From a bacterium (GTDB lineage Bacteria; Arandabacterota; Arandabacteria; Arandabacterales; JALGWA01), in NCBI GenBank assembly GCA_050125095.1, contig JASFEA010000002.1, positions 69-64,068 on the forward strand: a stretch of 64,000 bases of DNA, written 5' to 3'. Within the stretch, counting starts at the first letter, position 1; each line of letters opens with the position of its first letter. Shown here piece by piece: positions 40,666 to 62,275 of this stretch. A program made the translations under genes and the position numbers. Under the pieces are notes generated by a model. The model was not told the origin of the DNA and did no database searches. It worked only from the letters and a program-made list of their open reading frames with translations.

Positions 40666-40757
40666 CTAGCATCGGCCCGGTGCCAAGTCAAGCTATTCCA
40701 CCACGGGGGCCAAAAGGCCTGCTTCAGGCTCCGGCCGGCGCCGGAACGTCACGGCCT

Positions 40758-43734: not shown

Positions 43735-44721
43735 CTACCATCTCAATCTCATGGAGATCCTGTGGACGCCGCTGAAGACGCCGAACTCGGTATAAGCGTA
43801 GTCGACGGCGGTGGCGCCGAAGGACGTGTCCAGCTTGACGCCGGCGCCGCCTGATATGCCCATTTCCTCCGCGTTGGTGGTATAGCCCATCCTCACGAAC
43901 ACGGTGTTGTTCCAGCCGTATTCGCCGCCGAGGTGAACCCGCTCGGAGTAATCGGTAGGATGGGTGGCGTCCAGGGCCATGGTGAGCACGCTGTTCTGGC
44001 CGAATTCCCAATCGTAGGCAATGCCCAGCCGGAAGTTGAGGGGCAGGTCATTGCTCCCGAACATGCGCACTTCCTCTATATGCGATGTGCCTATGTAGTA
44101 CTTGTCTGTATACGACCCGTCGTAAACGAGGTCCGGGCCGAAGTTGGTGGTCGCCATCGCCAGCCTGAGCGAGTTAAATCCGGTGTGGTATACCGTGCCG
44201 AAGTCAAAGGCGACTCCCCTGGCGCTGTAGTCGTAGATCGACTGGTCGATGTATTTGAACGTTCCCCCGACATAGAGCATGTCGGTCCACCTCTTGGCGT
44301 ATGTGAAACCGACGGCTATGTCCCGGGCCGTGAAGGTGCCGGAGGCCTCAGTGGAGGAGTGCTCGCTCACCAGCTGCATTTCGCCGTAATCGGCCGTAAG
44401 AACGCTGAACGCGAAAGTGCCGAGCTCTTTGTACTTGAAAGCATAGGCACCGCCTATGAGCCTGACGTCAGCCAGCCATTCGGCATCGCTCACGAAGACT
44501 TCATCCCCGTCCAGGCCCGCCAGCCCGGCCGGGTTGCTGAACACCGAGGGCGCGCCCCAGACGCTGGCAGCATAGGCCTCGCCCATGGCCACTCCCCTCG
44601 AATCTATGCCTATCTTAAGAAACAGGGCGCTGGAACTTCCCACCTTGTCAACGGCCGCTGACGCAGTGCCGGCGCCCGCGAGCAGGGCACATATAGCGGC
44701 CAGCGCGATCGTCTTCCTCAT
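43735..44721 (-). CDS. FadL-fold outer-membrane beta-barrel, PorV/PorP-like (T9SS-associated candidate), module 1
   Basis: 328 aa. Signal peptide, N-terminal motif KVGSSSALFLKIGIDSRGVAMGEAYAA…SNPAGLA (shared by FadL/PorV-type barrels), and a C-terminal aromatic residue (…RLRW). It is a paralog of 59138..60115 and sits directly downstream of a T9SS-CTD protein. Confidence 0.5.
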   Translation of the reverse strand: MRKTIALAAICALLAGAGTASAAVDKVGSSSALFLKIGIDSRGVAMGEAYAASVWGAPSVFSNPAGLAGLDGDEVFVSDAEWLADVRLIGGAYAFKYKELGTFAFSVLTADYGEMQLVSEHSSTEASGTFTARDIAVGFTYAKRWTDMLYVGGTFKYIDQSIYDYSARGVAFDFGTVYHTGFNSLRLAMATTNFGPDLVYDGSYTDKYYIGTSHIEEVRMFGSNDLPLNFRLGIAYDWEFGQNSVLTMALDATHPTDYSERVHLGGEYGWNNTVFVRMGYTTNAEEMGISGGAGVKLDTSFGATAVDYAYTEFGVFSGVHRISMRLRW

Positions 44722-44741
44722 GGTCAGGTCCTCCTTAGGTT

Positions 44742-46625: not shown

Positions 46626-46640
46626 CTCATACCTCCGTGG

Positions 46641-49247: not shown

Positions 49248-49355
49248 AGTGCACCCCTCCATGAATCCGTTTTTGTGGTTTTTGCCTTACTGACTAAGCC
49301 CTTGATAAATATCGGCCAGAAATCGGAGGGGCTTGAGAAAAACCGGAGGGTTATA

Positions 49356-49375: not shown

Positions 49376-50407
49376 TTAGGATATGGGACGAACCCCTATT
49401 CCCGGAGCGTCGGTGAGTCTGAGTACGCCGCCCTGCCCCCGTATGCCCTCGAAGGGGTCGTCGGCTATGAGAAGATTGCCGTCCAGGTCGCAGAAGTCGA
49501 CAAGGGGCGCTATCTGCGCCGCGGCGCTTATGCCTACCGAGGTCTCAACCATACAGCCCAGCATGACCTTGAGGCCCGCGGCGCGGGCGGCGGCGATCAT
49601 TGCCAGCGTTTCCCTGATCCCGCCTGATTTCATGAGCTTTAGGTTCACGGCATGGGCGAGACCCGCCCATCCGAACACGTCCGCGGAGGAGGTCACGCTC
49701 TCGTCCACCATGATCGTAGACCCGCTTTCCGCCATGAGCCGCCGGTAACCCTCCGTGTCCGTCCTGGGAAGCGGCTGCTCGTAGAACTCTATGGAGTAGG
49801 CTTCATCATAGCGCGCCATCTTCTCCAGGGCGGTTTCGACGTCCCAGCCCTCGTTGACGTCCGCTCTAAGCACGGCATCAGTCTCGCCCCTCAGGAGATC
49901 GAGCAGTTCCCCCTCCCGCCCGAATCCCAGTTTCACCTTGAGAATCGGGTAGGATCTCAGGCGGTCCAACTGGCCTCTTATGAGGTCGACGTCCTCCACC
50001 CCGACCGTATAGGAGGTCTCTGGCGGATCCATGCCCGCGAGCCCCAGCATCTTATGAAGAGGGAGGCCGGCGGTCTTGCCCGCGACATCGTAAAGCGCGG
50101 TCTCCACGGCGGCCCTGCCCGACGGGCTCTCCGGGAACCTGGCTTTGAGAAGCCTCGAGGCCGCCGACAGAGCGAACGGGTCCTCGCCCGCTTCGGACCC
50201 CGAGAGCGCGGCTTCGGACTCCTCTATCGTACGCGCCGCCGCGTCTATGGAGTCGCCGTAGTAGGCCGATGGCGAGGCCTCCCCGTAGCCTGTGACTCCG
50301 CCGTGGTCGATCTCGGCGATCAGGACTTGCTTAACCGCCGTCGTTCCCCTCGCTATGGTGAAGGGTATTTCCAGGGTGAGTTTCTCAAGCCTGCATTTCA
50401 CTCTCAA
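49376..50407 (-). CDS. L-Ala-D/L-Glu (dipeptide) epimerase, enolase superfamily
   Basis: Enolase-superfamily layout with the KxK region (ILKVKLG), metal ligands, and the C-terminal barrel (…MLGCMVETSVGISAAAQIA…). Start likely TTG at 50407 with GGAGG 7 nt upstream, overlapping the DUF1611 stop. Confidence 0.7.
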   Translation of the reverse strand: MRVKCRLEKLTLEIPFTIARGTTAVKQVLIAEIDHGGVTGYGEASPSAYYGDSIDAAARTIEESEAALSGSEAGEDPFALSAASRLLKARFPESPSGRAAVETALYDVAGKTAGLPLHKMLGLAGMDPPETSYTVGVEDVDLIRGQLDRLRSYPILKVKLGFGREGELLDLLRGETDAVLRADVNEGWDVETALEKMARYDEAYSIEFYEQPLPRTDTEGYRRLMAESGSTIMVDESVTSSADVFGWAGLAHAVNLKLMKSGGIRETLAMIAAARAAGLKVMLGCMVETSVGISAAAQIAPLVDFCDLDGNLLIADDPFEGIRGQGGVLRLTDAPGIGVRPIS

Positions 50408-51492
50408 TATGGTGCCTCCACGGCCCGGGCGATCCGCCCGCACCCCCACCTTATCACATCGGCGACGGGAAGCCCGGTCAGGTCTTCGAGGCGCGCGGCC
50501 TCCCGCTTTGCGGGTGCTTCCTCCATGTCGAAGGTGTTTATGGCCACGCCCACCACGCGGGACGGGTGCACGAGTCCCGCGACATCCTCATGGAGCTTTA
50601 TGAGATCCGGAAGCGGCGGGATGCTGACGTCGTAGCCGGGTATGGCGGTTCTGGTCGGCTGGTGACACAGTATCATGGCGTCCGGACAGCTGCCGTGCAT
50701 AATTCCCAGGGCCACGGCGGAATAAGCCGGGTGTATGAGCGACCCCTGCCCCTCCACTATGGCGAGGCCGGCCCGCCCGAGGGCCTCCGTTGTTATGTTC
50801 TCGGTCACGGCCGACATGAAATCCCCCGGAACGCGGTCCACCGCTTCCCCCCAGCCTGCGAGCATTATGCCCGTCTGGCCCGTGGGCACGAACTCGGCGC
50901 GGGAGCCGCTCCGGTTCAGGAAACGGGCGAGCTCGAATGCAACCGTCATTTTGCCGATCCTGCAGTCGGAGCCCACAGTGAGCACCACCCTGCCCTTCTT
51001 GCGGCGCAGCGAACCCGAAGCGATGGTGTCGGGAACCCGGGGCACGCGCACGTCCCATATCCTCACCCCCGCCTCCGCGGCGGCACTCGATATCTCATCA
51101 TCTTCCCCCATCACGTGATGCAGGCCGTTGACGATGTCGAGGCCCCCGGCTATGGCCTTAAGGACCACCCCCCTCCACTCCGCGGGAAGCGCGCCTCCCC
51201 TCGGCGCGATCCCTATGAGCAGGGCGTCGGGCGAGCGGGCCAGCGCCTCCTCTATGGTGGCGACCACGGGGATTCCGCCCCCGAAGCCCAGCACATCCTC
51301 CACAGACGCCCCGGCCCGCGTGCTGTCGATGACACATGCTACGCGCTCCGGGACGTACCTTATGACGCATGCGGCAGTCTTCGAAGTGATGACGCCGAAC
51401 TCGCCCTGGGCGAGAATAGCCAGGCGCCCGTACTTATCTATGCGATCGGCCTTGTCGCCCACGCGAATCTCTCCCTGAGGTCGGCCCTGCAA
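50404..51492 (-). CDS. DUF1611-family protein (DgcN-like; partner of dipeptide epimerases)
   Basis: 362 aa. The pattern …GKMTVAFELARFLNRSGSRAEFVPTGQTGIMLAGWG… and the size match DUF1611. It sits immediately upstream of and overlapping the epimerase, the arrangement usually seen for this family. Confidence 0.5.
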   Translation of the reverse strand: MQGRPQGEIRVGDKADRIDKYGRLAILAQGEFGVITSKTAACVIRYVPERVACVIDSTRAGASVEDVLGFGGGIPVVATIEEALARSPDALLIGIAPRGGALPAEWRGVVLKAIAGGLDIVNGLHHVMGEDDEISSAAAEAGVRIWDVRVPRVPDTIASGSLRRKKGRVVLTVGSDCRIGKMTVAFELARFLNRSGSRAEFVPTGQTGIMLAGWGEAVDRVPGDFMSAVTENITTEALGRAGLAIVEGQGSLIHPAYSAVALGIMHGSCPDAMILCHQPTRTAIPGYDVSIPPLPDLIKLHEDVAGLVHPSRVVGVAINTFDMEEAPAKREAARLEDLTGLPVADVIRWGCGRIARAVEAPY

Positions 51493-52229
51493 TCCGGCGC
51501 GCCCGGATCAAGGCTCTCGATGCGGACATGTCCCGAAGCATGCAGCATGGAAAGGCCACCCAGATGTATGCCTACATGATCAATGCGGCCGGTGCCGGCG
51601 AAGAAGATCAGGTCCATGGGTCTCAGGCGCGACATGGACTTGAGCCTTCGGCCTTGAGCGGCCTGGTCGCCCGAGTCACGGGGCAACCTCAGGCCGATGA
51701 ATTCGTACAGCGCCTGCACGAGACCCGAGCAGTCGAAGCCGAAAGTGCTCTTGCCGCCCCAGAGATATGGCGTACCTATGACTTCGGGGATCAGACCGTT
51801 GAGGAGGGCCAGGGCGCGTCTGGGGCCGCCGGGCCTGCGGGGCCCCACCCTGCCGCCCGTGAGGTTCTTAAGGTCCCCCGCCCTCAGCCTGCCCGGGACG
51901 CCGTCGGGGCCCGTGATCACGGCCGTGGCGCCGCGCGCGCTTTCCACGGCCACGAGGCTCCCGATAGGGAGCATTATGTCGCCGAGCTTTCCGCGCCTGA
52001 GCCTGGCGAACCGGCGGACTACCGCGTGCGTCGGCCTGTAGGAAGGGGCTTCAACGACAGCCGAGGCCGGCGTCCAGCCTCTCATCCCGTCCGCTGTCTC
52101 GCAGCGGAGCCAGTCGCCCTTTCTCCGGACCGCGACGAGCCGTCTGCCCCAGACCTCCTGAGTGACAAGCTCGGACCGGGTACTCGGACCCGATCTGAGG
52201 CCAATAACGGGGCGGGCTGCAATGGCCAT
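51438..52229 (-). CDS. NlpC/P60 gamma-D-glutamyl-L-diamino acid endopeptidase with N-terminal SH3b-like domain (YkfC-like), no signal peptide
   Basis: 263 aa. Catalytic Cys motif GTPYLWGGKSTFGFDCSGLVQ, a downstream His (HVGIHLG), and an N-terminal SH3b-like region. The absence of a signal peptide suggests a cytoplasmic murein-peptide hydrolase. Confidence 0.7.
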   Translation of the reverse strand: MAIAARPVIGLRSGPSTRSELVTQEVWGRRLVAVRRKGDWLRCETADGMRGWTPASAVVEAPSYRPTHAVVRRFARLRRGKLGDIMLPIGSLVAVESARGATAVITGPDGVPGRLRAGDLKNLTGGRVGPRRPGGPRRALALLNGLIPEVIGTPYLWGGKSTFGFDCSGLVQALYEFIGLRLPRDSGDQAAQGRRLKSMSRLRPMDLIFFAGTGRIDHVGIHLGGLSMLHASGHVRIESLDPGAPDCRADLRERFAWATRPIA

Positions 52230-52246
52230 GTGCTATGGTCCCGGGT

Positions 52247-53500
52247 CTAGTAGTCTTCGGTGAGGCGGTAATCGCCGAAGCCCAGCTCGTCAACAAACAC
52301 GAAGCGTCTGCCGAGGCTGTTGTAATACCAGACCTCGGTCGCGTCCCGGTCAGCATCGTAAGGATATGATTCGATCTGGTCGGGCTCGCCGTAGATGATA
52401 TAGATTCGCCCGCGGTCGGTCTTCCAGCCCGCGGTCTGGGGCGCGCCAAAACGGACATTCGCGGTGTCGAATCTCCGGACATGCTCGTCATAGAATTCGT
52501 TCTCTTCAGTGTCGGGAGTGGGGTCTTTTTCCTTCCAGAACTCGTCCCAGAGCACCTTGCGCTCCTCGGGGCCGGCCTTGCGGAGCCTGTCGAGGAAGCT
52601 CCCGCTGGCGATATAGTGGAGCAGGTCCACCGCGCTCTCGACGTCCTTGCCCCAGTAGAAGAACTGGCTTCTTACCTCGAAAACCTTGGCCCTGGCTACC
52701 CTGAAGTCCCCGCCATCGCCCTCATCACGCGGAATGCCCACGATCAGATTGAAGACGCCGTTGGAGATCGCCTCGGCGGGAATATCGATCTCGACGGGGG
52801 CCGTGCCCGCCTCGGTGACGGTGACGGTGTCCTGGTAAGCCGTCTCCTCCTGTGACTTCATGACCCTGTAGACGACATCGAGCGGCACCTGTTCTTCCTC
52901 GGCGTAGACTTCGAAATAAACCGGGATGGACGTCAATTCACCCCTGTATGAGCGTATGACGTTCGGATAGACGCGCGATCGCCCGCGCGTTCCCTGTTCC
53001 TCGAAGCGCAGGTCGCTCAGCGAAGGGAGGTCATCGAGTCCGGGGATCATGAACTTGACCTCGACCTTGCTTCTCATGTTGGTGTCGCGGTCGCAGAGGG
53101 AAACGGTGAGACTGAAGTCCCCCGCCGGCGCCGGGAAAGACATCACGCCCGTTCGCACCGAGTCGCTTGAAGTAGTCTCCTCGTACTTATCAGCCCTCAG
53201 TCTGAGACGCTGGGTGTCGCCGGCAACCTGAGAGCTGCCGCTTTCGAAGAGGATGACGGAGAAGTCCGCGCTTGCGCTGTAATCGCCCTTGTTCGATCTC
53301 ACGAACTGGAGCGCGCGGTTGGTGACCCTGAAGTAAACCTCCACCCAGTACCTGTCGCCCCGTTTGAAATAGGCGGCGTCAGTGCAGAAGAAGGGAATTC
53401 CGCTCGAGCATGAGGGCAGGGTTAGCTCATCGGCGGCGGTGAGCCCGGCCGCGGCAATCAAGATCGCCACGAATAGATATGAGGACCTGATTGAACTCAT
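52247..53500 (-). CDS. GWxTD-domain secreted protein, paralog 1
   Basis: 417 aa with a signal peptide. The C-terminal motif FYDEHVRRFDTANVRFGAPQTAGWKTDRGRIYIIYGEPDQIES…EVWYYNSLGRRFVFVDELGFGDYRL contains the eponymous GWxTD(R)G…YI.YG.PD signature. Confidence 0.7.
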   Translation of the reverse strand: MSSIRSSYLFVAILIAAAGLTAADELTLPSCSSGIPFFCTDAAYFKRGDRYWVEVYFRVTNRALQFVRSNKGDYSASADFSVILFESGSSQVAGDTQRLRLRADKYEETTSSDSVRTGVMSFPAPAGDFSLTVSLCDRDTNMRSKVEVKFMIPGLDDLPSLSDLRFEEQGTRGRSRVYPNVIRSYRGELTSIPVYFEVYAEEEQVPLDVVYRVMKSQEETAYQDTVTVTEAGTAPVEIDIPAEAISNGVFNLIVGIPRDEGDGGDFRVARAKVFEVRSQFFYWGKDVESAVDLLHYIASGSFLDRLRKAGPEERKVLWDEFWKEKDPTPDTEENEFYDEHVRRFDTANVRFGAPQTAGWKTDRGRIYIIYGEPDQIESYPYDADRDATEVWYYNSLGRRFVFVDELGFGDYRLTEDY

Positions 53501-53549
53501 AGTAACCGGCGCAGATGCTGCGGCGCTCGGCGCCCGGGCCCTTCTTTAA

Positions 53550-54857
53550 TTACCGCAGGCCGACGGCCCTGGCGAGTAGCGCCAGTGAAATCACGTAATC
53601 ATACCGGGCCTCGACGTAGGAGGTCCGGGCCTCGCTGAGAGACACCTGTGAATCTATCTGCTCGAGCATCGTGGCGGCGCCTAGCCTGTATCGCTCCACG
53701 GCGAGTTTGAACTCCTCTTCGGACAGCTCCACGGTTTCGGCGCTCACCTTCATCCTCTGTCTTGCTTCTTCGACATTATAATAGGCTTCCTTGACCTCGA
53801 GTGCAACATCCCTCTTGACCTGCGCCAGGTCTTCTTTGGCAGTATTGAGCTGGGCCCTGTACTGCTTGCCCCTGCCCCAGCGGCTGAGACCGGTGAAGAT
53901 GTCAAAGGACATGCTGAGTCCCCAGGTCAGCTCCGACTCCTCCCAGGCCTCGGAGAGCTTGAGCCGGTCCTCGCCCGACCAGGAGTAGTTGGCGGAGAAA
54001 TTGAAACGAGGCAGCCAGTTTCCGCGGTTCTGCCATACGCCGTAATTCCGCGACTTCACGACCTCCTCGGCCCCTCTCACTTCGGGCCGCATCCTCATGG
54101 CCGAATCGAGAATCTCATCGAGATTGTATTCGCGCTCCTCTATGCCCAGGTCTTCGTCCAGGACTATACTGCACTCCCCGTCGATGGCCAGGAAGTGGCA
54201 TAGCCCCGTCTCCGCAAGCCGGAGATCATTCTCGGCCGAAATCAGATCGAGCTTGTTCCGGCTCACCTCGACGCCGGCGCGGAGCACGTCCGAAATCACC
54301 GCCGAGCCCACCTCCACCAGGGCCTCCGCTCTCTCGAGCTGCTTCTGGCTCAGTTCATAGGCCTCCTGGCGCACCTCCAGGAGCTTCTGCGCCTTGAGCA
54401 CGTCAAGGAACCGCTGCCTGGCAGTGAGGGCGATGTCGGCTTCCACCGAGAACATGGACTGCACCGCGGCTCTCTTGTCGGCCTCCGCTCCCAGCCATCC
54501 TGCAATGTTGGAGCCACCGTGAAAAATGGGCTGGCTGAAGTAAAGGGCTGTGTTGAACGACCCCGGGGGTACCAGCCTGTCGCCCACCACGCCCGCGAAA
54601 GGCGATCTTCGATAGTTGACGCTGTAGGATACCTGAGGCAAGAGGTTCGAGAGCGCGCTAAGTCCGGCGCCCTCGGCCCGTTCCACGTTGTAATTCGCCT
54701 GCAGGACGGCCACATTGACCTCGAGGGCCCGCTCCACGCAATCGTCTATGCTGAGCTCCATAACCCTGTCAGCGCAGTGGCCTGGATTGAAGCCCCCCGT
54801 CAGAACCGCCGTCGCCGCAGCTGCGGCCAGCACCATCTTGAAGCACCTTCTACTCAT
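53550..54857 (-). CDS. TolC-family outer-membrane efflux protein
   Basis: 435 aa with a signal peptide and two repeated coiled-coil/beta regions with TolC/OprM-type motifs (…LPQVSYSVNYRRS…; …ISLALLARAVGLR C-terminus). RBS AAGGAGG. Confidence 0.8.
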   Translation of the reverse strand: MSRRCFKMVLAAAAATAVLTGGFNPGHCADRVMELSIDDCVERALEVNVAVLQANYNVERAEGAGLSALSNLLPQVSYSVNYRRSPFAGVVGDRLVPPGSFNTALYFSQPIFHGGSNIAGWLGAEADKRAAVQSMFSVEADIALTARQRFLDVLKAQKLLEVRQEAYELSQKQLERAEALVEVGSAVISDVLRAGVEVSRNKLDLISAENDLRLAETGLCHFLAIDGECSIVLDEDLGIEEREYNLDEILDSAMRMRPEVRGAEEVVKSRNYGVWQNRGNWLPRFNFSANYSWSGEDRLKLSEAWEESELTWGLSMSFDIFTGLSRWGRGKQYRAQLNTAKEDLAQVKRDVALEVKEAYYNVEEARQRMKVSAETVELSEEEFKLAVERYRLGAATMLEQIDSQVSLSEARTSYVEARYDYVISLALLARAVGLR

Positions 54858-54881
54858 TATGTCCTCCTTTCATACCGTCAG

Positions 54882-54910
54882 AGCATAGCAAGACTGCCAA
54901 ATGTAATCAA
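54882..54910 (-). promoter_or_regulatory. sigma70-like promoter candidate upstream of tolC (TTGATT-17-TATGCT)
   Basis: Minus strand -35 TTGATT (54910..54905), a 17-nt spacer, and -10 TATGCT (54887..54882), ~25 nt upstream of the tolC ATG. Confidence 0.3.
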
Positions 54911-55067
54911 TCATCTACCGGCACAAACGGCGCGGCCGCCGGACGGACTGCGCCGCTGCGCTGGCGTCAAGGGGAGACAGGATATCTCACAGGGGGCTTT
55001 CCGGCAGCCCGAAAGGTGCCGAAACTCGCCCGCTTGCGCCGTCCTCTCCAGGTAAGGCAGGACAGCG

Positions 55068-55679
55068 TCACTGCGTGAGAGTAAACCTGAACGGGATGCT
55101 GATCGTCGCCTTTACAGGCACGTCGCGCTGCTTTGCCGGACTGAATCTGAACCTGTACGCGGCCGCTATAGCGGCGTTGTTGAGGATCTCGGCTTCACTC
55201 TGCCCGACCCAGGCGCTTATGACGCGGCCGCTCTCGTCAATCGTGACCATGACTACGACGAGCCCTTCCACCTCGGCGCTTCTCGCCAGGTCCGGGTACT
55301 CGGGTTCGGCTGCCTGCAGGACCTGCGGGTAAGTGTCGAAGGCGAAGAACATCTCCGGCTCCGGCGGGGGCGGAGGCGGCGCGGGCGGAAGATTCTCGGC
55401 GTCGAGGAACGTGGGCGCGATAGTCTCCTCCTCGCTCACGTCGTCGCTCGCCTCGATCTCCACCGCGACCTCGGGTCGGACAATTTCCTCTGGCGGAGGA
55501 GGAATCTCGATCTCCGGCGGCACTTCGACCACCTCGATCCTCTCCTCGCGCAGTTTGTAGACGCCCGGAACGTATTCGGGCCAGAAGGCAAAGGCAACAG
55601 CATGAATCAGAATCGCGCCAAGGAAGCCGATCTCCAGGTACTTCTTGTACTTCTTCTTGAACTCAGCGTGAGCTGTCAC
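55068..55679 (-). CDS. tonB: energy transducer TonB
   Basis: 203 aa with an N-terminal TM anchor, a Pro/Glu-rich spacer (PPEIEIPPPPEE…PPAPPPPPPEPE), and a C-terminal TonB domain (…VEGLVVVMVTIDESGRVISAWV…). Confidence 0.85.
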   Translation of the reverse strand: MTAHAEFKKKYKKYLEIGFLGAILIHAVAFAFWPEYVPGVYKLREERIEVVEVPPEIEIPPPPEEIVRPEVAVEIEASDDVSEEETIAPTFLDAENLPPAPPPPPPEPEMFFAFDTYPQVLQAAEPEYPDLARSAEVEGLVVVMVTIDESGRVISAWVGQSEAEILNNAAIAAAYRFRFSPAKQRDVPVKATISIPFRFTLTQ

Positions 55680-55689
55680 CTGAACGCTC

Positions 55690-56109
55690 CTATCTGAATC
55701 TCATCTTCTCTTTCTTGGAGGCAAACGACACCCTGACGGCGCTTGCCCGCTTGAGCGACTCCATGATGTCCGCCATCACGGCATAGGGCGCCATCTCGTC
55801 GGTGTAGAAAGCGACGATTATGCCAGGATTGGCCCTCACGCGCTGGGCTATAATGCCCTCCACGGCATTGGGCGCCACTATCATGTCGTTGATGGAAATC
55901 CTGCCGGTGCGGTCCACCCAGATATGCGCGACGTTCTCCCTGGGGATGTCCTGGGCCGCCTCCGCTTTGGGAAGCGATATGGGAAGGCCCTCCTCCAGCT
56001 TCAGAACCGTCGTCACCATGAAGAATACGAGCAGCAGGAAGGCGATATCGGCCATCGAGGAGGTCGGGATAGTGGCGGTTACCTTCTGCTTCTTCTCGAA
56101 ATGTGCCAT
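55690..56109 (-). CDS. exbD: biopolymer transport protein ExbD/TolR
   Basis: 139 aa. N-terminal TM (IAFLLLVFFMVTT) plus a periplasmic domain; typical ExbD. Confidence 0.85.
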   Translation of the reverse strand: MAHFEKKQKVTATIPTSSMADIAFLLLVFFMVTTVLKLEEGLPISLPKAEAAQDIPRENVAHIWVDRTGRISINDMIVAPNAVEGIIAQRVRANPGIIVAFYTDEMAPYAVMADIMESLKRASAVRVSFASKKEKMRFR

Positions 56110-56126
56110 TTCTCTCTCCCCTGCTC

Positions 56127-56531
56127 CTATTTCTCCAGAGTCTTGAGCGAGACCCTCTGGGCCTGCGCCAGCTTGAGCTCGTCCAGCATGTCGATCATCA
56201 GGCCGTATGTCGCATTGGGGTCGGTCTCCACTACAACGATGAGCTTGTCGTTCTCCATCATGGCCTGCTCGACGCGCCCGCGCACGTCGTGCAGGTTCAC
56301 GACTTCGTCATCGATGGTGACCGTGCCATCGGCGTAGCCGGACACTCTCATGATGTTCTTCCGCGAGATCTTCTTCGCCACGGCCTCCTTGCTCGGGAGG
56401 TCCAGAATGAGCCCCTCCTCTATGGCGAACACGGTGGAGACCATGAAGAAGATAAGGAGCAAGAACGCAATGTCCGACAGAGATGAATTGGGTATCTCGG
56501 TCGAGACTTTGGATCTCTTCTTGAACTTCAA
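56127..56531 (-). CDS. exbD: biopolymer transport protein ExbD/TolR (second copy)
   Basis: 134 aa. DIAFLLLIFFMVSTVF TM plus a periplasmic domain. It is a paralog of the downstream exbD. Confidence 0.85.
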   Translation of the reverse strand: MKFKKRSKVSTEIPNSSLSDIAFLLLIFFMVSTVFAIEEGLILDLPSKEAVAKKISRKNIMRVSGYADGTVTIDDEVVNLHDVRGRVEQAMMENDKLIVVVETDPNATYGLMIDMLDELKLAQAQRVSLKTLEK

Positions 56532-56533
56532 CT

Positions 56534-57427
56534 CTATTCACCTACCTTGGGCGGCTGCATCTTGCCGAGAATGACAAGCGTATCCACCAGGTCAGCACTT
56601 GATTCTTCCATCTCGATAATGAACCGGTCGATCTGGGACACGAAGTAGTTATGGAAGGTCTGCATCGGGATGGCGATGATGAGACCCGTCGCAGTGGTGA
56701 TAAGAGCCTCCGAGATACCGGAGGCCACGAGCTTGGCGTTTACCTGCTCGGCTTCGGCGATGGCGTTGAACGCCCTGATCATACCCGACACCGTCCCGAG
56801 GAAGCCCAGGAGCGGCGCCACCGTGGCGACGGTCGAGAGCCAGATGAGGCCCCTCTCCAGGAACGAGGTCTCCACGGTCCCGGCGGCGACGATGGACCTC
56901 TCTACCGCCTCGGTACCCATGTCGGCCCGCTTGAGACCGGCGTGAAGAATGCTGGCGATCGGGCCTCTCGTCCTCTCGCACTCCTGTGCGGCGGCTTCGA
57001 CACCCTTTGAGTGGAGCGCGTCGAGCACTTTCTTCATGAGCCGGCGTGTATCGGTGCGTGCGCGCGTCAACGTTATGAGCCTTTCAATGATAACGGCCAC
57101 GCCGATGATGGACGTGACCAGCAGAGCGTACATGAAGTTCCCGCCCTTGAAGAAGAGTGTCACGAGCCCGCTCTCTCTGAGCCGGGTCATCATGCCGCCT
57201 TCGGGCATTTCGGCCTCTTCAACCGGAGTCTCCACCGAAGCCAGAAGGTCAGCCAGAGAACTGTCGACCTGAGCTTCCATAGCGGCTCCTTCAGCACCTT
57301 CGGCGCCCTCCTCGGCGGTCGCCCCGGCTGCCTCCGCAGATCCCTCCTGAGCAAGGCAGAAACCTGCGACTGAAATTACGAGCATACTGATGACGATTAG
57401 GGACACCCAGATCCTGACGTGAGTCAT
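56534..57427 (-). CDS. exbB: MotA/TolQ/ExbB proton-channel protein with cleavable signal peptide and acidic N-terminal periplasmic extension
   Basis: Start chosen at ATG 57427, preceded by AGGAG 8 nt upstream: MTHVRIWVSLIVISMLVISVAGFCLA. An Ala/Glu/Gly-rich ~60-aa region follows, then three TM helices of the MotA/ExbB family (…LGFLGTVSGMIRAFNAIA…). Confidence 0.8.
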   Translation of the reverse strand: MTHVRIWVSLIVISMLVISVAGFCLAQEGSAEAAGATAEEGAEGAEGAAMEAQVDSSLADLLASVETPVEEAEMPEGGMMTRLRESGLVTLFFKGGNFMYALLVTSIIGVAVIIERLITLTRARTDTRRLMKKVLDALHSKGVEAAAQECERTRGPIASILHAGLKRADMGTEAVERSIVAAGTVETSFLERGLIWLSTVATVAPLLGFLGTVSGMIRAFNAIAEAEQVNAKLVASGISEALITTATGLIIAIPMQTFHNYFVSQIDRFIIEMEESSADLVDTLVILGKMQPPKVGE

Positions 57428-57524
57428 TGACAAATCTCCTTGATTGGCTGTTGACCCAGAACGCACTACCCTTGTAGGGATGGCATTCAACGATTACCTA
57501 AAAGAAGCAAAATCAACTCTCAAA

Positions 57525-57553
57525 ACCTTAATACCGGGTATTTTTGTTGTCAA
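57525..57553 (-). promoter_or_regulatory. sigma70-like promoter candidate for exbB-exbD-exbD-tonB (TTGACA-17-TAAGGT)
   Basis: Minus strand -35 TTGACA (57553..57548), a 17-nt spacer, and a weak -10 TAAGGT (57530..57525), in the 133-bp gap upstream of exbB. Confidence 0.25.
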
Positions 57554-57560
57554 CCCTTTT

Positions 57561-59153
57561 TTAGTGCTCGTGTTTCTCGGTGCTGTAGATCAGGCGGTAG
57601 TTGCCATTCCCGGTCTCATCGGCGAATATGAAGCGCACTCTCGCCTGGGTGGAGGAGCGCTTGGCAAGCCGCCTTACCGGATTGCCTGGACCTTCATAAG
57701 TCCATATCTCGTAGGCTTTTCCATGCACGGTCTCCCCCCCGCGCTGGTCGAGATGTTCGTCGGTTTCTCCGGTAGTCCTGGTGTAACCCCCAGTCCCCTG
57801 CCCCCCCGACTCCAGAAACTCGCGCGAGTACGGGTCTGTCAGCACCGGTTCGGTCCCGCCGCCTATATCGCGCGTGCCCTGTACGAACTCATAGTCCGAG
57901 AAGTGGCTCTGTATGTCGTCGGGAGGCCCGTACTTTATGTAAAGCCTGCCCATGTCCGAAAGGGCGCCGCGCACCTCGGTCGAGTAGTGAAGATCGGCGT
58001 AGTGCACTCGCCTGTAGTGCTCCTCCAGGGCCTCGTTTCCAAGCGTGCCCGGGCTGGGGTCCAGCTCGGTCCAGAATTCGGTGAGGTACTGCTCGCGGGC
58101 CCCCGTGGAGAGAGCCCTGAATTCCTCCATCTCGTCTTCCTTCATTATATACAGCATGTCCTCCTCGACCTCATGCCCGTACTTGCCCCAGGAGAGCACC
58201 GTCCATGCGATATCGAACTTGGCCTGGGTCAGAGCGAGCCTGGCCCCGTCCGAATCCAGGGCCTCCACCCTGAGGAGATAGGTGCCGGCCGACAGCGAGC
58301 TTATGTCGAAGAGGGCCGCGTTGCCCACGCTCCAGCCCTCAATCGCCACCGTTCTCTGGTCTCTGAATATGGTGTCGCCCGTCGTGTTGATAATGGAGTA
58401 CGCCGTCACCAGGCTGTCGCCCGCGCCCTCCTCGGTGAAATCATAGATCTCATAGAAAAGCGAGAGCTCGTTGACCAGCAGGCCATACAGCCGGCTCGGA
58501 TTGGGGACCACCTCGTAGCCCGATTTCTCGAAGAGCCCGCTGGAGCGCCTGGATATGCTCCTCGCGAACTCGATGTCGCTCATGGCCACGGCTCCCCTCT
58601 CGAAGTCCCTGGAGACGACATTCATCTCGGCCATGCCCGTGTTCTTCTTCTTCAGAAGGTAGGAGACTATGGCCTTCTTGAGGGCGTTCTGGTCCTCTAT
58701 GGTGACTTTCACGGTGTATTGACCGGGGCTCACTTCGAAGCTCGACTCGAATACCTGGATTATGGTCCGGTCGGCTGTCTCGTTTTCGGTGTCGGCGAAG
58801 ACCTCCACTTCCTTCTCGGTCCGCGCCACCTGGGCGCCGTCCATGTCATATACGACGACTTCATAGATGAGATCGCCCTTAAACCTTGTCTGCCTGTCTA
58901 TGAACTCGATCTGGTCATTGGATACGACGCAGTACACTTCCTCCGTATTCCTGCCATCCGAGCCATAGAAGGTCACCACGTCCGCGTGGAAGATTATGTC
59001 CCCCTCGCTCGGCCGCGGGACCTCCTGGTCCGCGACGGCCTGCCGGGGTCCGACTGCCGCAAGGGCTGCGGCGGCAAATAGAATCAGGGGCAGCCTTGAG
59101 CCGGCCGCCCCTGCTTTAGATTTTAGATTGCACATATTTAGAAATTCGCCCAC
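57561..59153 (-). CDS. GWxTD-domain secreted protein, paralog 2 (divergent motif, C-terminal insertion)
   Basis: 530 aa. It aligns with paralog 1 by eye: TEFWTELDPSPGT vs DEFWKEKDPTPDT; LEEHYRRVHYADLHYSTEVRGALSDMGRLYIKYGPPDDIQS vs FYDEHVRRFDTANVRFGAPQTAGWKTDRGRIYIIYGEPDQIES; ARVRFIFADETGNGNYRL vs RRFVFVDELGFGDYRL. It overlaps the upstream PorV-like gene by 16 nt. Confidence 0.65.
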   Translation of the reverse strand: MGEFLNMCNLKSKAGAAGSRLPLILFAAAALAAVGPRQAVADQEVPRPSEGDIIFHADVVTFYGSDGRNTEEVYCVVSNDQIEFIDRQTRFKGDLIYEVVVYDMDGAQVARTEKEVEVFADTENETADRTIIQVFESSFEVSPGQYTVKVTIEDQNALKKAIVSYLLKKKNTGMAEMNVVSRDFERGAVAMSDIEFARSISRRSSGLFEKSGYEVVPNPSRLYGLLVNELSLFYEIYDFTEEGAGDSLVTAYSIINTTGDTIFRDQRTVAIEGWSVGNAALFDISSLSAGTYLLRVEALDSDGARLALTQAKFDIAWTVLSWGKYGHEVEEDMLYIMKEDEMEEFRALSTGAREQYLTEFWTELDPSPGTLGNEALEEHYRRVHYADLHYSTEVRGALSDMGRLYIKYGPPDDIQSHFSDYEFVQGTRDIGGGTEPVLTDPYSREFLESGGQGTGGYTRTTGETDEHLDQRGGETVHGKAYEIWTYEGPGNPVRRLAKRSSTQARVRFIFADETGNGNYRLIYSTEKHEH

Positions 59154-60115
59154 AGGGATATCTTATGCGAGGTTCCCAGGAGCCCGAAATCCGAGAAACC
59201 GTAATCTACGCCCCAGATGGAGGGCTTGTTGGTCAGTCCGATCCTCACGAACGGGAACTTCACGCCGAAGCCGCCTGTGAGACCTTCTTCATCCCTGTTG
59301 AACCTGTAACCGCCTCTGACAGCGACCTCGAAGTTGGGCCCGTATTTCTGATACACATACTCCCCGCCGAGGTTAATGCGCTCGGCTCCGTCCGGCGGAT
59401 GGTTGAACTCGAAGGCGCCCAGGAACCTGTGGTCCGGGACGTCCAAGAGGGGCATGGACGCGCCCACCTTGAAGGTGATGGGCATGGGGCTCTCCTTGCC
59501 GTCATCGCGGAACTTGTAGCCGGCCCCCATGTTCTGGAAGCACATGCCCAGCTTGATGCCCTTGAACCCGGTGTCGTAGAGCGTCCCCAGGTCCACCGCG
59601 AAAGTCTCGCCGCTGTAATCCGCAAGTCCTTCGTGGATCCACTTGAGAGTGACTCCGAAGGAAAACCTGTCGGTAAACATATTGGCATACGTCAGAGCGA
59701 AGGCCATGCTGCCCGCATCGAAGGAGTAGCCCGTACCGTCCGGCCTGTACTCCGTGGTCTCGGGCATCGGGTCCATCTGAAGGACCGTGGCGCTGACGCC
59801 CAGGACTCCCGGCAGGAACTTGTATGAGAAGACATAAGTGGCGAACTCATGGCTTATCTCCGCCGGCCAGCTGCCGTGGCTGAGATTGAACTCGCTCCCT
59901 TCGATGAGAGCTATGCCCGCGGGATTCCAGTAGATGGCTGTCGCGTCATCCGAAACCGCCACGAAGGCCTCGCCCATGGCAATAGCGCGGGCCCCCACTC
60001 CGATCTTAAGGAACTGGGCTCCGACCGTCCCGACCTTCTCGAAGATCTCCGCGGACCAGCTAGTCGCACCAATGACCAGTATCAGCGTCACCGCGACAGT
60101 CAGCGTTCTCTTCAA
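59138..60115 (-). CDS. FadL-fold outer-membrane beta-barrel, PorV/PorP-like (T9SS-associated candidate), module 2
   Basis: 325 aa. Signal peptide, motif KVGTVGAQFLKIGVGARAIAMGEAFVAVSDDATAIYWNPAGIA, and C-terminal …ISLWANF. It is a paralog of 43735..44721. Confidence 0.5.
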   Translation of the reverse strand: MKRTLTVAVTLILVIGATSWSAEIFEKVGTVGAQFLKIGVGARAIAMGEAFVAVSDDATAIYWNPAGIALIEGSEFNLSHGSWPAEISHEFATYVFSYKFLPGVLGVSATVLQMDPMPETTEYRPDGTGYSFDAGSMAFALTYANMFTDRFSFGVTLKWIHEGLADYSGETFAVDLGTLYDTGFKGIKLGMCFQNMGAGYKFRDDGKESPMPITFKVGASMPLLDVPDHRFLGAFEFNHPPDGAERINLGGEYVYQKYGPNFEVAVRGGYRFNRDEEGLTGGFGVKFPFVRIGLTNKPSIWGVDYGFSDFGLLGTSHKISLWANF

Positions 60116-60140
60116 AGTACTCCTCCTTCCTTCCTCTCTC

Positions 60141-62255
60141 CTATCTGACCACGACGAACTTGTTGATTTCCGTACCCAGAGGTGATTCCGTATGGACTAT
60201 ATATATTCCGCTAACGATTTCCTGGTTGTTCCTCGATACGAGGTTCCATCCCGGCGGCTCGCCGCTGGGGTCGGTGGGGTCCTCGAAGTACCTCTCCCAT
60301 ACGAGGTCGCCCGAGAGGCTGTATATCCTCACTGTGGCCTGCCGCGGCAGGTTGAGGAAGCGGACCCTCCTGCCGGACGGGTCCCTTTCATACTCTACCA
60401 TGTCTCCTATCGCGTGGCCCGTCTGCCTGGCCTCTTCGCTCATGCCCGGATAGGGATTGGGCACTATGCGGACCTTGCCCGTAACCCTCGCCGGCGTCCC
60501 TCTGGGATAGACCAGCTGCATCGACTGCGAGTAACTCCCGTAACGGGGCACGGGCGTCAGCTCTCCCGTGGCGGGATTCCTGATGACCTCCGCGCTGCCG
60601 TCGTCGTACGCCGTGACGGCATACCAGTACGGAATACCGTTATGGACGTCCGAATCCACATAGCGGTACTTGCCTATGCCGTTCAGGCCGGTATCTACGA
60701 GCGGCAGGTCCTTCTTGTTGATGTCCATTAAGAGCTGCCACTGGTCGGCCGACGGCACCTCGCTCTCATGCCTCCAGCCCTTGGCTTTCCAGATGCGGTA
60801 GCCGTCGAAGTCGTACACGCGCTGCAGCGGGTCCGGCACCGTCTCGGAGTAATCGTCCCACTCGATGAAGATCTTGCCGTCCCCCGCGATGAGTCTCTGC
60901 TTGGGCGGAGGGGGCGGGCTCGAGCCCAGCCAGTTGACGAAGACCTGCTGGCCTCCGGGACCCGCCATTGGCCCGCCGTTATAGACTTTCTGGGCGTTGG
61001 TGGCGTTCGCTATGAGGTCGCTGAAGGGGTCGCCGCATACGAAGGCGACCTGGAAAACCAGCGTGCTTCCGGCCGGAATCTCGGCGAAACGGCCCGCGGA
61101 TACGAGGAACCTGTAGTCCGCCGCCTTGGTCGTCGGGGGGTCTATGGTCTTCTCGGTGTCCGACACGCCCCTCATATAGCGGTACCTCTCCTTGTCGTTC
61201 TCAGGGTCCTGCTCGCCGCTCGACCAGCGTTTGAACATATGAATGCCGACCTCGGACGGCGCCAGGTTGCCCTGCGGGTCGGTAGTATGCCCGAGGAACA
61301 TTACCCCGATATATCCGGGCACATCGCCGTCTTCACCCCCGGGGTAGTCGTACATATAGCCCATGGTGATGTGATAGTCCACCGCTACCTCGCCCCCCTC
61401 CGGGCTTATTTCACGGCGGATTACGGTGGTGTCTATATAGGCGGCCATGTCGTCCACGTAGGACTGCGGGACCTGGCGCACCGGGCCCACGTCGCCGTCC
61501 ACCATGAAGGCGATATAGGCGTTATGGATGGAGCGGTCGCCGTCATTGGTGACCTTGTATTCGATACCTATGAAGTCCTCTATAGCGGGACTGGTCCACG
61601 CGTAGCTCTCCTGCCTGACCTTCAGGTAGAGAGGCACATGGAAGTCCTCTGTCCTGGTCCTGTTAAAAGAGGTCGCCGAGTCGTAGAAGACGGCCGTATA
61701 CATCTGCTGGGAAATGGCGGCGAAGTCCTCGTCCACAAGGCCGTCGCCGTCATTGTCATAGCCGTCGAGCGGGTCCTCGTCATAGAGGTTGTCGGCGTCA
61801 TCGTCCTGCAGCCTGTTTCCGCTTGGCTGCCCCTCGAAAGTCTCGTAGACGATGTCCCTGGGGTCGGGCTTGGGATAGAACTCGAGCTGGTAGACAGCCG
61901 CGGTGACGAGCGTGTCCTCTCTTCCGCTCTCGCGCACGACGCCGCCCACCCACAGACCCGCGGCAAACAGGTACTCGATGCTGCTGCCGGCGGGCCACTC
62001 GCCCGACGGCGAGGTCGGGTCCGCATTGTAATCCCCGAGCATGCCGAGGTTGGAGGTATGCAGGAGGAGCTGGTTCACATTGTGGTATATGCCCCTGAAC
62101 CTGACGAGCCCCTGCTGGCCCTCGAGCCCGGGATCGTCATATACCGCCTCCTCATAATAGGCCAGCGCGCCCGCGGCCATGAGCGCAGCGAATAGTGCGG
62201 CGATCACCGGAATCCTCAAGACCGGCATCCGGCTCGCCCTCTTCTTGTTGTCCAT
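60141..62255 (-). CDS. secreted protein with C-terminal T9SS type-A sorting domain; module 2 cargo (paralog of 44742..46625)
   Basis: 704 aa with a signal peptide. Shared N-terminal motifs with the module-1 cargo (ALAYYEEAV; GLWVGG; GYRIWKAKG…YAVTAYDDGS FN3-like). CTD …VRIVPNPYPGMS…FLNLPRQATVRIYSLSGDLV…GWNLVSRNNQEIVSGIYIVHTES…NKFVVVR. Confidence 0.65.
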   Translation of the reverse strand: MDNKKRASRMPVLRIPVIAALFAALMAAGALAYYEEAVYDDPGLEGQQGLVRFRGIYHNVNQLLLHTSNLGMLGDYNADPTSPSGEWPAGSSIEYLFAAGLWVGGVVRESGREDTLVTAAVYQLEFYPKPDPRDIVYETFEGQPSGNRLQDDDADNLYDEDPLDGYDNDGDGLVDEDFAAISQQMYTAVFYDSATSFNRTRTEDFHVPLYLKVRQESYAWTSPAIEDFIGIEYKVTNDGDRSIHNAYIAFMVDGDVGPVRQVPQSYVDDMAAYIDTTVIRREISPEGGEVAVDYHITMGYMYDYPGGEDGDVPGYIGVMFLGHTTDPQGNLAPSEVGIHMFKRWSSGEQDPENDKERYRYMRGVSDTEKTIDPPTTKAADYRFLVSAGRFAEIPAGSTLVFQVAFVCGDPFSDLIANATNAQKVYNGGPMAGPGGQQVFVNWLGSSPPPPPKQRLIAGDGKIFIEWDDYSETVPDPLQRVYDFDGYRIWKAKGWRHESEVPSADQWQLLMDINKKDLPLVDTGLNGIGKYRYVDSDVHNGIPYWYAVTAYDDGSAEVIRNPATGELTPVPRYGSYSQSMQLVYPRGTPARVTGKVRIVPNPYPGMSEEARQTGHAIGDMVEYERDPSGRRVRFLNLPRQATVRIYSLSGDLVWERYFEDPTDPSGEPPGWNLVSRNNQEIVSGIYIVHTESPLGTEINKFVVVR

Positions 62256-62275
62256 TGACCTGCCCTCCGTTGCGA

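Follow-up and report, generated by a model that had tools for sequence, protein, structure and literature searches.

We have analysed a stretch of 64,000 nucleotides (hereafter the window) from a bacterium of the Arandabacterota (contig JASFEA010000002.1, positions 69 to 64,068), which carries three adjoining genes, for an SH3b-NlpC/P60 peptidase, a DUF1611 protein and an enolase-superfamily epimerase, among genes for outer-membrane transport. The GC content of the window is 60.7%, and from approximately 10 kb onward most of its larger open reading frames (ORFs) are on the minus strand. Genes were called by an ORF scan together with Pfam and NCBIfam profiles, covering the ORFs of 40-64 kb plus 20 larger ORFs elsewhere in the window. 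An earlier note on this DNA had described two modules with TonB-dependent receptors (TBDRs) and, between them, an exbB-exbD-exbD-tonB set, a TolC, two GWxTD proteins and the three enzyme genes; these calls recover every one of them, all on the minus strand, at the coordinates given below.

The peptidase, DUF1611 and epimerase genes

The peptidase gene (51438-52229, 263 aa, NLPC_P60 E 1.7e-24) is followed by that of the DUF1611 protein (50404-51462, 352 aa, GTG start, DUF1611_N and DUF1611 domains, E 7e-63) and that of the epimerase (49376-50407, 343 aa, TTG start, MR_MLE_N and MR_MLE_C domains). The longest ORFs of the last two are larger (50404-51492 and up to 50449, respectively). We have placed the DUF1611 start at the GTG at 51462 because its homologues are annotated with a length of 352 aa; for the epimerase the TTG at 50407, located in a TTGA start/stop overlap with the DUF1611 gene, is the most likely start, and the relatives of this protein are also 343 aa long. 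With these starts, the peptidase and DUF1611 genes overlap by about 25 nt and the DUF1611 and epimerase genes by 4 nt (TTGA). The overlap itself had thus been correctly noticed, but not its range of 4-55 nt, since figures of 55 and 46 nt arise only from the use of the longest possible ORFs. The trio consists of three translationally coupled cytoplasmic genes.

The peptidase ORF starts 17 nt past the stop codon of the upstream GWxTD gene and the protein enters its SH3b domain immediately, leaving no room for a signal peptide; the proposal that this enzyme carries none therefore stands, and export by a signal peptide is excluded. The domain order is probably SH3b-SH3b-NlpC/P60; the SH3b profiles gave 24.1 bits for SH3_16 (just under the cut-off of 25.8) and 21.6 bits for SH3_3. 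The nearest solved relatives are BcYkfC (3H41), BtYkfC (3PVQ/4R0K), a structure from B. ovatus (3NPF, aligned over residues 16-246 of the peptidase) and the cyanobacterial AvPCP (2HBW). The catalytic motif GFDCSGLVQ was confirmed, and the stretches PYLWGG, FDCSG, DHVGIH and MLHAS align with 3H41, retaining the catalytic Cys-His(-His) and the oxyanion Tyr (in BcYkfC these residues are Tyr226, Cys238 and His291). The YkfC subfamily has been defined by an Asp (Asp256 in BcYkfC), which neutralises the L-Ala amine of the substrate, and by a Tyr of the SH3b domain (Tyr118 in BcYkfC, Tyr64 in AvPCP), found in 85% of the Asp-carrying proteins (PMC2954226). The Asp is kept in the window, in a PRDSG stretch identical to that of 3H41 (PRDAS in 3PVQ, PRDAY in 2HBW), and the NlpC/P60 protein 8ER5, which is not of the YkfC type, reads PRTAG at this site. 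It is also invariant in one multiple alignment, with the relative L008 having instead an Asn (PRNS). Both the closest structures and this residue bear out the label YkfC-like, and the protein is predicted to be a YkfC/dipeptidyl-peptidase VI-type enzyme with one changed S2 residue, discussed further below.

The epimerase groups with the L-Ala-D/L-Glu dipeptide epimerases (AEE), as had been proposed, and not with muconate cycloisomerases or o-succinylbenzoate synthases. Its top nine PDB matches are dipeptide-epimerase-like chains, five of them deposited under generic MLE-family names. The best one is BT1313 of B. thetaiotaomicron (3IJI, E 5e-63), cited as a characterised YkfB-like L-Ala-D-Glu epimerase (PMC4600125). 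Other matches are 3JVA (2e-40), 1JPM (2e-36) and 1JPD (2e-31), and the first chain named solely as a (chloro)muconate cycloisomerase is 1NU5 (E 2.9e-27). The catalytic set is intact (the KxK motif with K157 and K159, D183, E210, D235 and K257) and invariant with respect to E. coli YcjG and BT1313. A DxD motif, which at the end of the eighth strand binds the ammonium group of the dipeptide, is present as D307-L-D309, and an FxIARG stretch and a DLDG motif are common to the window protein and E. coli YcjG. In a crude neighbour-joining (NJ) tree the window epimerase falls with BT1313 and with the DUF1611-paired epimerase of Eisenbacteria, and Ruegeria DgcA falls with E. coli YcjG. Along these lines, identity is 36-38% to epimerases linked to NlpC/P60 genes and 31% to Ruegeria DgcA.

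NCBIfam models give the epimerase 203 bits for DgcA, 122 and 121 for the two AEE models, 110 for mucon_cyclo and 85 for menC. Both AEE scores stay below the equivalog cut-offs (PRK15129, 122 against 343 bits; A_G_epim_Thtga, 121 against 500 bits), and these models are narrow, as the BT1313 control also fails them (157 and 149 bits). Two shortcuts to the substrate were tried and rejected. The top position of DgcA among the NCBIfam matches does not prove a DgcA function, since BT1313, an AEE, scores higher on that model (224 against 203 bits), and DxD does not discriminate between AEE and DgcA, since the PGAP-named DgcA of Ruegeria TM1040 keeps it. L-Ala-D-Glu and N-acetyl-D-Glu are both N-acyl-D-glutamates, and the sequence alone does not distinguish between one, the other or both as the substrate.

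The DUF1611 protein matches the PDB entries 2OBN (E 3.6e-59), 7XRJ (E 6e-55) and 2G0T. With the PGAP-named DgcN of Ruegeria it shares 34% identity and the motifs GxDCxxGK, TGQTG and EGQGxxxH; it is a DgcN-like acyltransferase homologue. According to two reports, D-Glu is racemised via N-acetyl-D-Glu by a route whose key enzyme is DgcN (PMC12363236, PMC10845958), in agreement with the link of DUF1611 to D-Glu catabolism drawn in the earlier note.

We have examined the 10-kb surroundings of DUF1611 genes at 80 GTDB-representative loci obtained with a DUF1611 profile search. Among these loci, the full trio is confined to the own lineage of the window. A DUF1611-epimerase pair alone is present at 3 of the 80 loci (two labelled Eisenbacteria and one 'uncultured bacterium'), and in the two pair loci examined the neighbours are bacillithiol, radical-SAM and ResB genes. 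The remaining loci come mainly from Gemmatimonadales, plus a few from Ignavibacteria and Poribacteria, and have no epimerase or NlpC/P60 gene within 10 kb, and clustering of neighbouring ORFs gave no conserved partner for the high-GC Gemmatimonadales loci, where spurious ORFs swamped the analysis. Elsewhere, plasmid pHV4 of Haloferax carries a DUF1611 gene with a dipeptide epimerase (4-nt overlap), a D-aminoacylase and an ABC transporter, and in Ruegeria dgcN-DgcA, with DUF1611 directly before the epimerase, is accompanied by a D-amino-acid transaminase. Hence, DUF1611 does recur as a partner of epimerases (Eisenbacteria-labelled metagenome-assembled genomes (MAGs), Haloferax pHV4 and Ruegeria), but this is not universal and most of the close homologues stand alone. 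Other partners on plasmids are pyridoxal phosphate (PLP) enzymes of the alanine-racemase family (Vibrio, Phaeobacter) and ATP-grasp enzymes (Burkholderia). Four loci (L091 5935-8186, L179 3860-6198, L093 4699-8393 and L009 10001-12349) illustrate this variety; among them, DUF1611 overlaps a gene of the PLP alanine/ornithine-racemase family (Phaeobacter, Vibrio), is flanked by two ATP-grasp genes (Burkholderia) or has a Peptidase_S11 D-Ala-D-Ala carboxypeptidase gene nearby. In general, DUF1611 seems linked to the chemistry of D-amino acids or peptides, its partners having unrelated folds.

The note had gone further and equated the trio with exactly the enzyme set of Bacillus ykfABCD and E. coli ycjG/mpaA. 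This is incorrect, as DUF1611 is absent from both and MpaA is unrelated to YkfC (PMC2954226). The trio combines two modules already known as gene pairs, YkfC-AEE and DgcN-like-AEE, and each of its enzymes is of a known kind.

Neighbouring envelope genes and putative transcription units

Immediately upstream of the trio are the genes of a GWxTD-domain protein, the second in the window (52247-53500, Pfam and TIGR04514), with a hydrophobic signal-peptide-like N terminus judged by eye, and of a TolC-family outer-membrane channel (53550-54857, OEP E 2.5e-64; TIGR01844 162 bits, under its cut-off). In the deeper relatives L007, L008 and L096, genes for Yip1, a membrane fusion protein (MFP) and two MacB/FtsX permeases are inserted between TolC and GWxTD, all junctions from TolC through the epimerase are overlaps or gaps of a few nt, and GWxTD overlaps NlpC/P60. 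The TolC-MFP-MacB/FtsX x2-GWxTD unit occupies positions 3071-9227 in L007, 3061-9235 in L008 and 3813-9997 in L096. The window subclade has lost the MFP, MacB and Yip1 genes and retains TolC and GWxTD. The genomes without MFP and MacB (the window, L002, L003 and L005) are the same ones that carry Met at the SH3b position considered below. TolC, MFP and MacB are efflux-type and not uptake parts, and for GWxTD a full-text literature search found no paper, there is no solved relative, and a single-sequence AF2 model was unusable (pLDDT 41.9). The tie of the trio to TolC and GWxTD is physically tighter than that to the TBDR triad. In another lineage, L156 (49-6305) has the order ABC ATPase-MFP-MacB-MacB-GWxTD-Dpp-type importer-YkfC-like, a second link of a MacB/GWxTD unit to a YkfC-like gene.

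Downstream of the epimerase lies a triad formed by TBDR1 (46641-49262), a 627-aa exported protein with a type IX secretion system (T9SS) tail (44742-46625) and an outer-membrane protein of the PorV/PorQ family (43735-44721, NF033709 193 bits, cut-off 90). TBDR1 contains CarboxypepD_reg, Plug and a 22-strand-type barrel (barrel E 2.5e-32); the Plug is borderline (23.7 bits, cut-off 23.9), and the probable start is the ATG at 49246, followed by a hydrophobic signal-peptide-like segment. The 627-aa protein has no Pfam match, and its distant homologues carry PF18962 and PF13860. In its AF2 model (pLDDT 72.6) the C terminus resembles the C-terminal domains of PorZ and PorU, and the fold matches, all with low TM scores, are beta-sandwich, FN3 and T9SS C-terminal domains and include no enzyme fold. 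The protein is a candidate surface partner of TBDR1.

At the other side is a second, paralogous module (57561..64000) with TBDR2 (62276 to the window end, where it is cut by the edge; Pfam/NCBIfam), a 704-aa T9SS-tailed protein (60141-62255), a PorV/PorQ-family protein (59138-60115, NF033709 188 bits, cut-off 90) and a 530-aa GWxTD protein (57561-59153). The two modules correspond member by member, with identities of 30% for the TBDR, 24% for the large protein, 33% for the PorV-like protein and 25% for GWxTD. A CarboxypepD_reg-TBDR, a large T9SS-tailed exported protein and a private PorV/PorQ barrel therefore form a repeated module, with two copies within 20 kb, and a GWxTD protein accompanies each window copy (43735-49262 and 57561-64000). 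No SusD-family lipoprotein was found beside TBDR1 or TBDR2, the next proteins having no Pfam match or belonging to the PorV family only. The triad looks like an analogue of SusC/SusD with a surface partner that the T9SS delivers. It also occurs at L177 (7180-12821) and L178 (7343-12932) and is widespread in related metagenomic lineages.

Between module 2 and TolC lies the energy-transduction set exbB-exbD-exbD-tonB (55068..57490), retained in every relative, with ExbB at 56534-57490 (Pfam MotA_ExbB), two ExbD at 56127-56531 and 55690-56109 (each with a Pfam ExbD match) and TonB at 55068-55679 (Pfam TonB_C). A TonB-dependent transport set is thus present, comprising a receptor with plug and barrel, ExbB, two ExbD and TonB_C.

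Two intergenic sites suggest how these genes may be transcribed. The 210-nt spacer between TonB and TolC contains a promoter-like site on the minus strand, TTGATT-N17-TATGCT (54882..54910), whose TTGAWT and TATGCT hexamers are kept in L002, L003 and L005; we consider it a candidate promoter upstream of TolC. The 113-nt spacer between the epimerase and TBDR1 contains, on the same strand, a non-coding element strongly conserved in an alignment of relatives (GCCGATATT..AAGGGCTTAGTCAGTAAGGCAAA, 49281..49316), of the form GYCGATA..AAGG, with the core GYCGATA kept in all seven relatives aligned. The core persists across genomes from 46% to 61% GC. This element may serve the TBDR1 triad as a promoter or operator. 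The likely units would be TolC-GWxTD-NlpC/P60-DUF1611-epimerase, with TolC probably as the first gene of the trio's transcription unit, and TBDR1-627 aa-PorV-like. When 43-60.5 kb were scanned for sigma-70 promoters and terminators, the counts were on a par with those of shuffled sequence and hence uninformative, and Rfam had no match in 42-64 kb at E <= 0.1.

Occurrence in other genomes

The block is syntenic in relatives, labelled in public data '[bacterium]' or Candidatus Eisenbacteria, whose DUF1611 proteins are 83, 76, 71, 62 and 58% identical to that of the window, and also in L096. The loci of the relatives have 46-49% GC against 61% in the window, and the preservation of gene order across these identities and GC contents indicates that the arrangement is not due to chance.

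Outside of this lineage, the co-occurrence of TBDR modules with the enzymes was assessed by comparative genomics, and the triad of TBDR, large protein and PorV-like protein was found beside NlpC/P60 and epimerase genes in two further groups of metagenome contigs. The contig P0240 reads TBDR (968 aa)-1022 aa-341 aa-NlpC/P60-Peptidase_S66-enolase-Amidase_3, and its relative L097 has the same upstream triad. On this contig a Peptidase_S66 gene (LD-carboxypeptidase, YkfA-like) fills the slot that DUF1611 has in the window. The other case, L100, reads TBDR-1052 aa-PorV/FadL-like-NlpC/P60-enolase-Amidase_3; its amidase has a hydrophobic signal-peptide-like N terminus (by eye), and its NlpC/P60 and epimerase proteins have none. 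The window TBDR1, 627-aa and PorV-like proteins match those of the P0240, L097 and L100 groups at 244-300, 68 and 119 bits, respectively. Since the receptors of L100 and L097 differ in subfamily from TBDR1, the association of triad and enzyme cassette looks to have arisen at least twice, with different gene orders. We had also considered that the cassette-adjacent TBDRs form one specialised orthologous clade; this was rejected, as TBDR1 shares 41% and 38% identity with the receptors of L177 and L178, which lack the cassette, and 27-35% with those of L100 and L097.

Other YkfC-like and epimerase genes are accompanied by ABC importers. L098 (4077-10741), of another lineage, has the order epimerase-SBP_bac_5-DppB-DppC-Orn/DAP-decarboxylase-family-YkfC-like NlpC/P60, a compact operon that could encode the import of murein tripeptide and its complete conversion to L-Ala-L-Glu, perhaps even to lysine. 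The Deinococcus plasmid pDEIPE01 has peptide ABC-M20-NlpC/P60-epimerase-MurR, and in B. subtilis dpp adjoins ykfABCD (PMC2954226). All five outside clusters of YkfC-like and epimerase genes examined (L098, pDEIPE01, L100, P0240 and B. subtilis) thus contain a transporter, and the presence of either the triad or a peptide ABC importer beside the cassette elsewhere supports a link between transport and catabolism.

Possible function of the locus

The explanation that we favour, and to which we would give an even chance, is that this is a locus for the salvage of peptidoglycan fragments, with the TBDR1 triad as the likely point of entry through the outer membrane. The triad, under its own upstream element and driven by an ExbB-ExbD-ExbD-TonB set like the neighbouring one, would admit peptides or muropeptides across the outer membrane, and the inner-membrane step would be encoded elsewhere. 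In the cytoplasm, the products of the trio, most likely transcribed from the conserved promoter-like site upstream of TolC, would act as follows. The NlpC/P60 enzyme would cut the bond between gamma-D-Glu and the diamino acid in free stem peptides, giving L-Ala-D-Glu and meso-diaminopimelate (DAP; with or without D-Ala), the epimerase would invert the D-Glu of L-Ala-D-Glu, and ordinary dipeptidases would finish the process. DUF1611, by analogy with DgcN, would N-acylate free D-Glu, which the same or a similar epimerase would convert into N-acetyl-L-Glu, a side branch rescuing D-Glu. Yu et al. are said to have reported in 2023 that N-acetyl-L-Glu is then hydrolysed to L-Glu.

Several observations weigh against this explanation. 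All of its chemical steps and its claims about expression are inferred. The Tyr of the SH3b domain is replaced in the window by Met49 (DGMRGW; nt 52083-52085), as it is in L002, L003 and L005, and is retained (DGYxGW) in L007, L008, L096 and all outgroups. This Tyr, in strand beta-D of the first SH3b domain, helps to set the need of YkfC for a free N-terminal L-Ala (PMC2954226), and its replacement in the window subclade, together with the Asn of L008, may reflect a relaxed or shifted S2 specificity. Neither the DUF1611 protein nor the epimerase reaches the equivalog cut-off of the respective Dgc model (DgcN, NF041892, 249 against 480 bits, with the Haloferax and Eisenbacteria partners at 187 and 250 bits; DgcA, NF042940, 203 against 400 bits). 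The genes packed against the trio are TolC and GWxTD (plus MFP and two MacB genes in relatives) and not TBDR1, which lies 113-270 nt away behind the conserved element. Among 43 out-of-lineage YkfC-like loci the triad is present at two clearly and at one weakly, with a background of 1 in 63 unrelated FCB-type loci having a TBDR of the TBDR1 family within 10 kb, and the nearest out-of-lineage triads of TBDR1 (L177 and L178) lack the NlpC/P60 cassette. The locus and the 20 larger ORFs scanned elsewhere in the window (housekeeping genes) yielded no inner-membrane peptide or muropeptide permease, murein amidase, LD-carboxypeptidase or regulator. Along the same lines, the ORFs of 40-64 kb and these 20 contain no deacetylase, amidohydrolase or D-aminoacylase, which could lie outside of the window.

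The earlier note had proposed the TBDR modules and the TonB machinery as a dedicated import route for such peptides. The recurrence of triad and cassette speaks for this proposal, and the tighter packing of the trio with TolC and GWxTD, the separate element of TBDR1 and the lack of an inner-membrane permease among the genes scanned speak against it. Nothing shows that the ExbBD-TonB set in particular is dedicated to murein peptides. Comparative support for a functional tie between a TonB-dependent triad and the enzymes is real but thin. That the lineage of the window and the two other contig sets possess a dedicated locus for the utilisation of peptidoglycan debris, in which a TBDR, a T9SS-anchored surface protein and a private PorV-like barrel, together an analogue of SusC/D, would capture muropeptides or stem peptides of dead cells, a TolC/MacB/GWxTD unit would contribute to periplasmic handling and a fused cassette of YkfC, DgcN-like and AEE enzymes would turn both L-Ala-D-Glu and free D-Glu into the L-forms, we regard as unlikely.

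A tentative alternative, which we consider possible but doubtful, is that the trio serves endogenous recycling only, i.e., that peptides from the cell's own turnover arrive through a permease encoded elsewhere and that the envelope genes are a neighbourhood without a common substrate. The enzymes are indeed cytoplasmic, like MpaA/YcjG of E. coli and YkfBC of B. subtilis (PMC2954226), the block lies amid housekeeping genes, the scanned ORFs of the window contain no inner-membrane importer, TBDR1 has its separate element, the triads of L177 and L178 come without the cassette, and the Eisenbacteria-labelled MAGs hold the DUF1611-epimerase pair in unrelated contexts. Recycling alone is harder to reconcile with the triad adjoining NlpC/P60 and epimerase genes (and a murein amidase) in two more contig groups with a different gene order, with the transporter found in all five outside clusters, and with a synteny that holds over a 15-point difference in GC. 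The pathway might also be centred on D-Glu, as in the DgcN/DgcA type (D-Glu to N-acetyl-D-Glu to N-acetyl-L-Glu), with the NlpC/P60 enzyme merely freeing D-Glu or N-acyl-D-Glu from gamma-D-glutamyl peptides and the epimerisation of L-Ala-D-Glu being secondary or absent. DgcA and DgcN are the top NCBIfam matches of the two proteins, the pair with a 4-nt overlap exists with no NlpC/P60 gene in both Eisenbacteria-labelled MAGs and Haloferax (in the latter with the D-aminoacylase and ABC transporter), the DgcA of Ruegeria keeps DxD and groups with YcjG, so that motifs cannot separate AEE from DgcA, and the S2-defining residues have changed, Tyr to Met in the window and Asp to Asn in L008. However, both Dgc scores are approximately half of the cut-offs, the AEE BT1313 outscores the window protein on the DgcA model, the epimerase is closer to those linked to NlpC/P60 than to Ruegeria DgcA, and the cluster has no deacetylase or D-aminoacylase gene, and we find a D-Glu-centred pathway rather improbable.

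The close packing of OEP-MFP-FtsX-FtsX-GWxTD-NlpC/P60-DUF1611-epimerase in L007, L008 and L096, the conserved promoter-like site upstream of TolC, and L156, where, in another lineage, a MacB-GWxTD unit meets a Dpp-type importer and a YkfC-like gene, would fit yet another arrangement. Here, the trio would belong with an envelope unit of TolC, a MacB-type pump and GWxTD that releases or handles stem peptides (e.g., by FtsEX-like control of a periplasmic factor or by export through TolC), with the trio disposing of the products and the TBDR triads playing no part. We judge this very unlikely, as the window subclade has lost MFP and MacB and yet retains the trio, L100 and the P0240 contig hold cassette and triad without TolC, MacB or GWxTD, and GWxTD itself came without papers in the literature search, a solved relative or a usable model.

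Peptidoglycan salvage through the TBDR1 triad, our favoured explanation, can be compared with known systems. As in ykfABCD of B. subtilis and BT1313-BT1314 of B. thetaiotaomicron, the genes of a YkfC-type SH3b-NlpC/P60 and a YkfB-type epimerase are close together with a transporter nearby (PMC2954226, PMC4600125), and, like that of B. subtilis, the peptidase resides in the cytoplasm, whereas BtYkfC and BcYkfC have signal peptides. Unlike ykfABCD, the window locus has no YkfA LD-carboxypeptidase and no ABC importer, and it differs from both systems in the DUF1611 gene between peptidase and epimerase and in the change of the SH3b Tyr to Met; its neighbouring transporter is a TonB-dependent triad and not Dpp or Opp. 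The order of DUF1611 followed by an AEE-like epimerase, with the 4-nt overlap of Haloferax, recalls the DgcN-DgcA pathway of marine Proteobacteria and haloarchaea (Yu et al. 2023, as cited in PMC12363236 and PMC10845958), and the core DUF1611 motifs are common with the PGAP-named Ruegeria DgcN. The scores at about half of the cut-offs, the lack of a deacetylase or transaminase partner, an epimerase placed in the BT1313 clade and not with DgcA/YcjG, and the NlpC/P60 gene joined into the operon set the window apart. E. coli MpaA-YcjG with MppA/Opp also removes mDAP from the tripeptide in the cytoplasm before epimerising L-Ala-D-Glu, with homologous epimerases, but MpaA is related to YkfC neither by sequence nor by structure (PMC2954226), and import is by an inner-membrane ABC system that needs no TBDR. 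The polysaccharide utilisation loci (PULs) of Bacteroidota with SusC/SusD and the TonB-dependent GlcNAc loci of Caulobacter and Xanthomonas likewise have a CarboxypepD_reg TBDR and a surface partner beside catabolic enzymes, and the GlcNAc TBDRs show that building blocks of cell walls and chitin can enter by this route (PMC13046382, PMC4173781). In the window, however, no SusD was detected, the partner is a T9SS-tailed protein with a PorV/PorQ-family barrel, and peptides or muropeptides are the presumed cargo, one for which the full-text literature search found no TBDR precedent. The search found no precedent either for TonB-dependent import of murein peptides or for a role of DUF1611 in peptidoglycan catabolism.

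Peptidoglycan, with its D-amino acids, accounts for a large share of the dead microbial biomass in soils and oceans and is degraded slowly. D-amino acids have been treated as part of the recalcitrant dissolved organic matter (PMC12363236, PMC10845958). If the triads import stem peptides or muropeptides, this would explain how abundant uncultured bacteria harvest the peptidoglycan pool of necromass, cell-wall peptides would join the known classes of TBDR cargo, and DUF1611 would gain a testable role beside murein-peptide enzymes. A conservative reading still leaves two known two-gene modules united in one operon, a variant of known murein-peptide catabolism.

Further along the window, after the TBDR1 triad, are the genes of a ferredoxin (4Fe-4S dicluster), a CCG-domain protein, a Pyr_redox_2 flavoprotein and PspC (40015-43465), and a 2012-aa ORF lies on the minus strand at the window start (344-6382). 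The ferredoxin, CCG, Pyr_redox_2 and PspC genes trail the TBDR1 triad in each relative examined.

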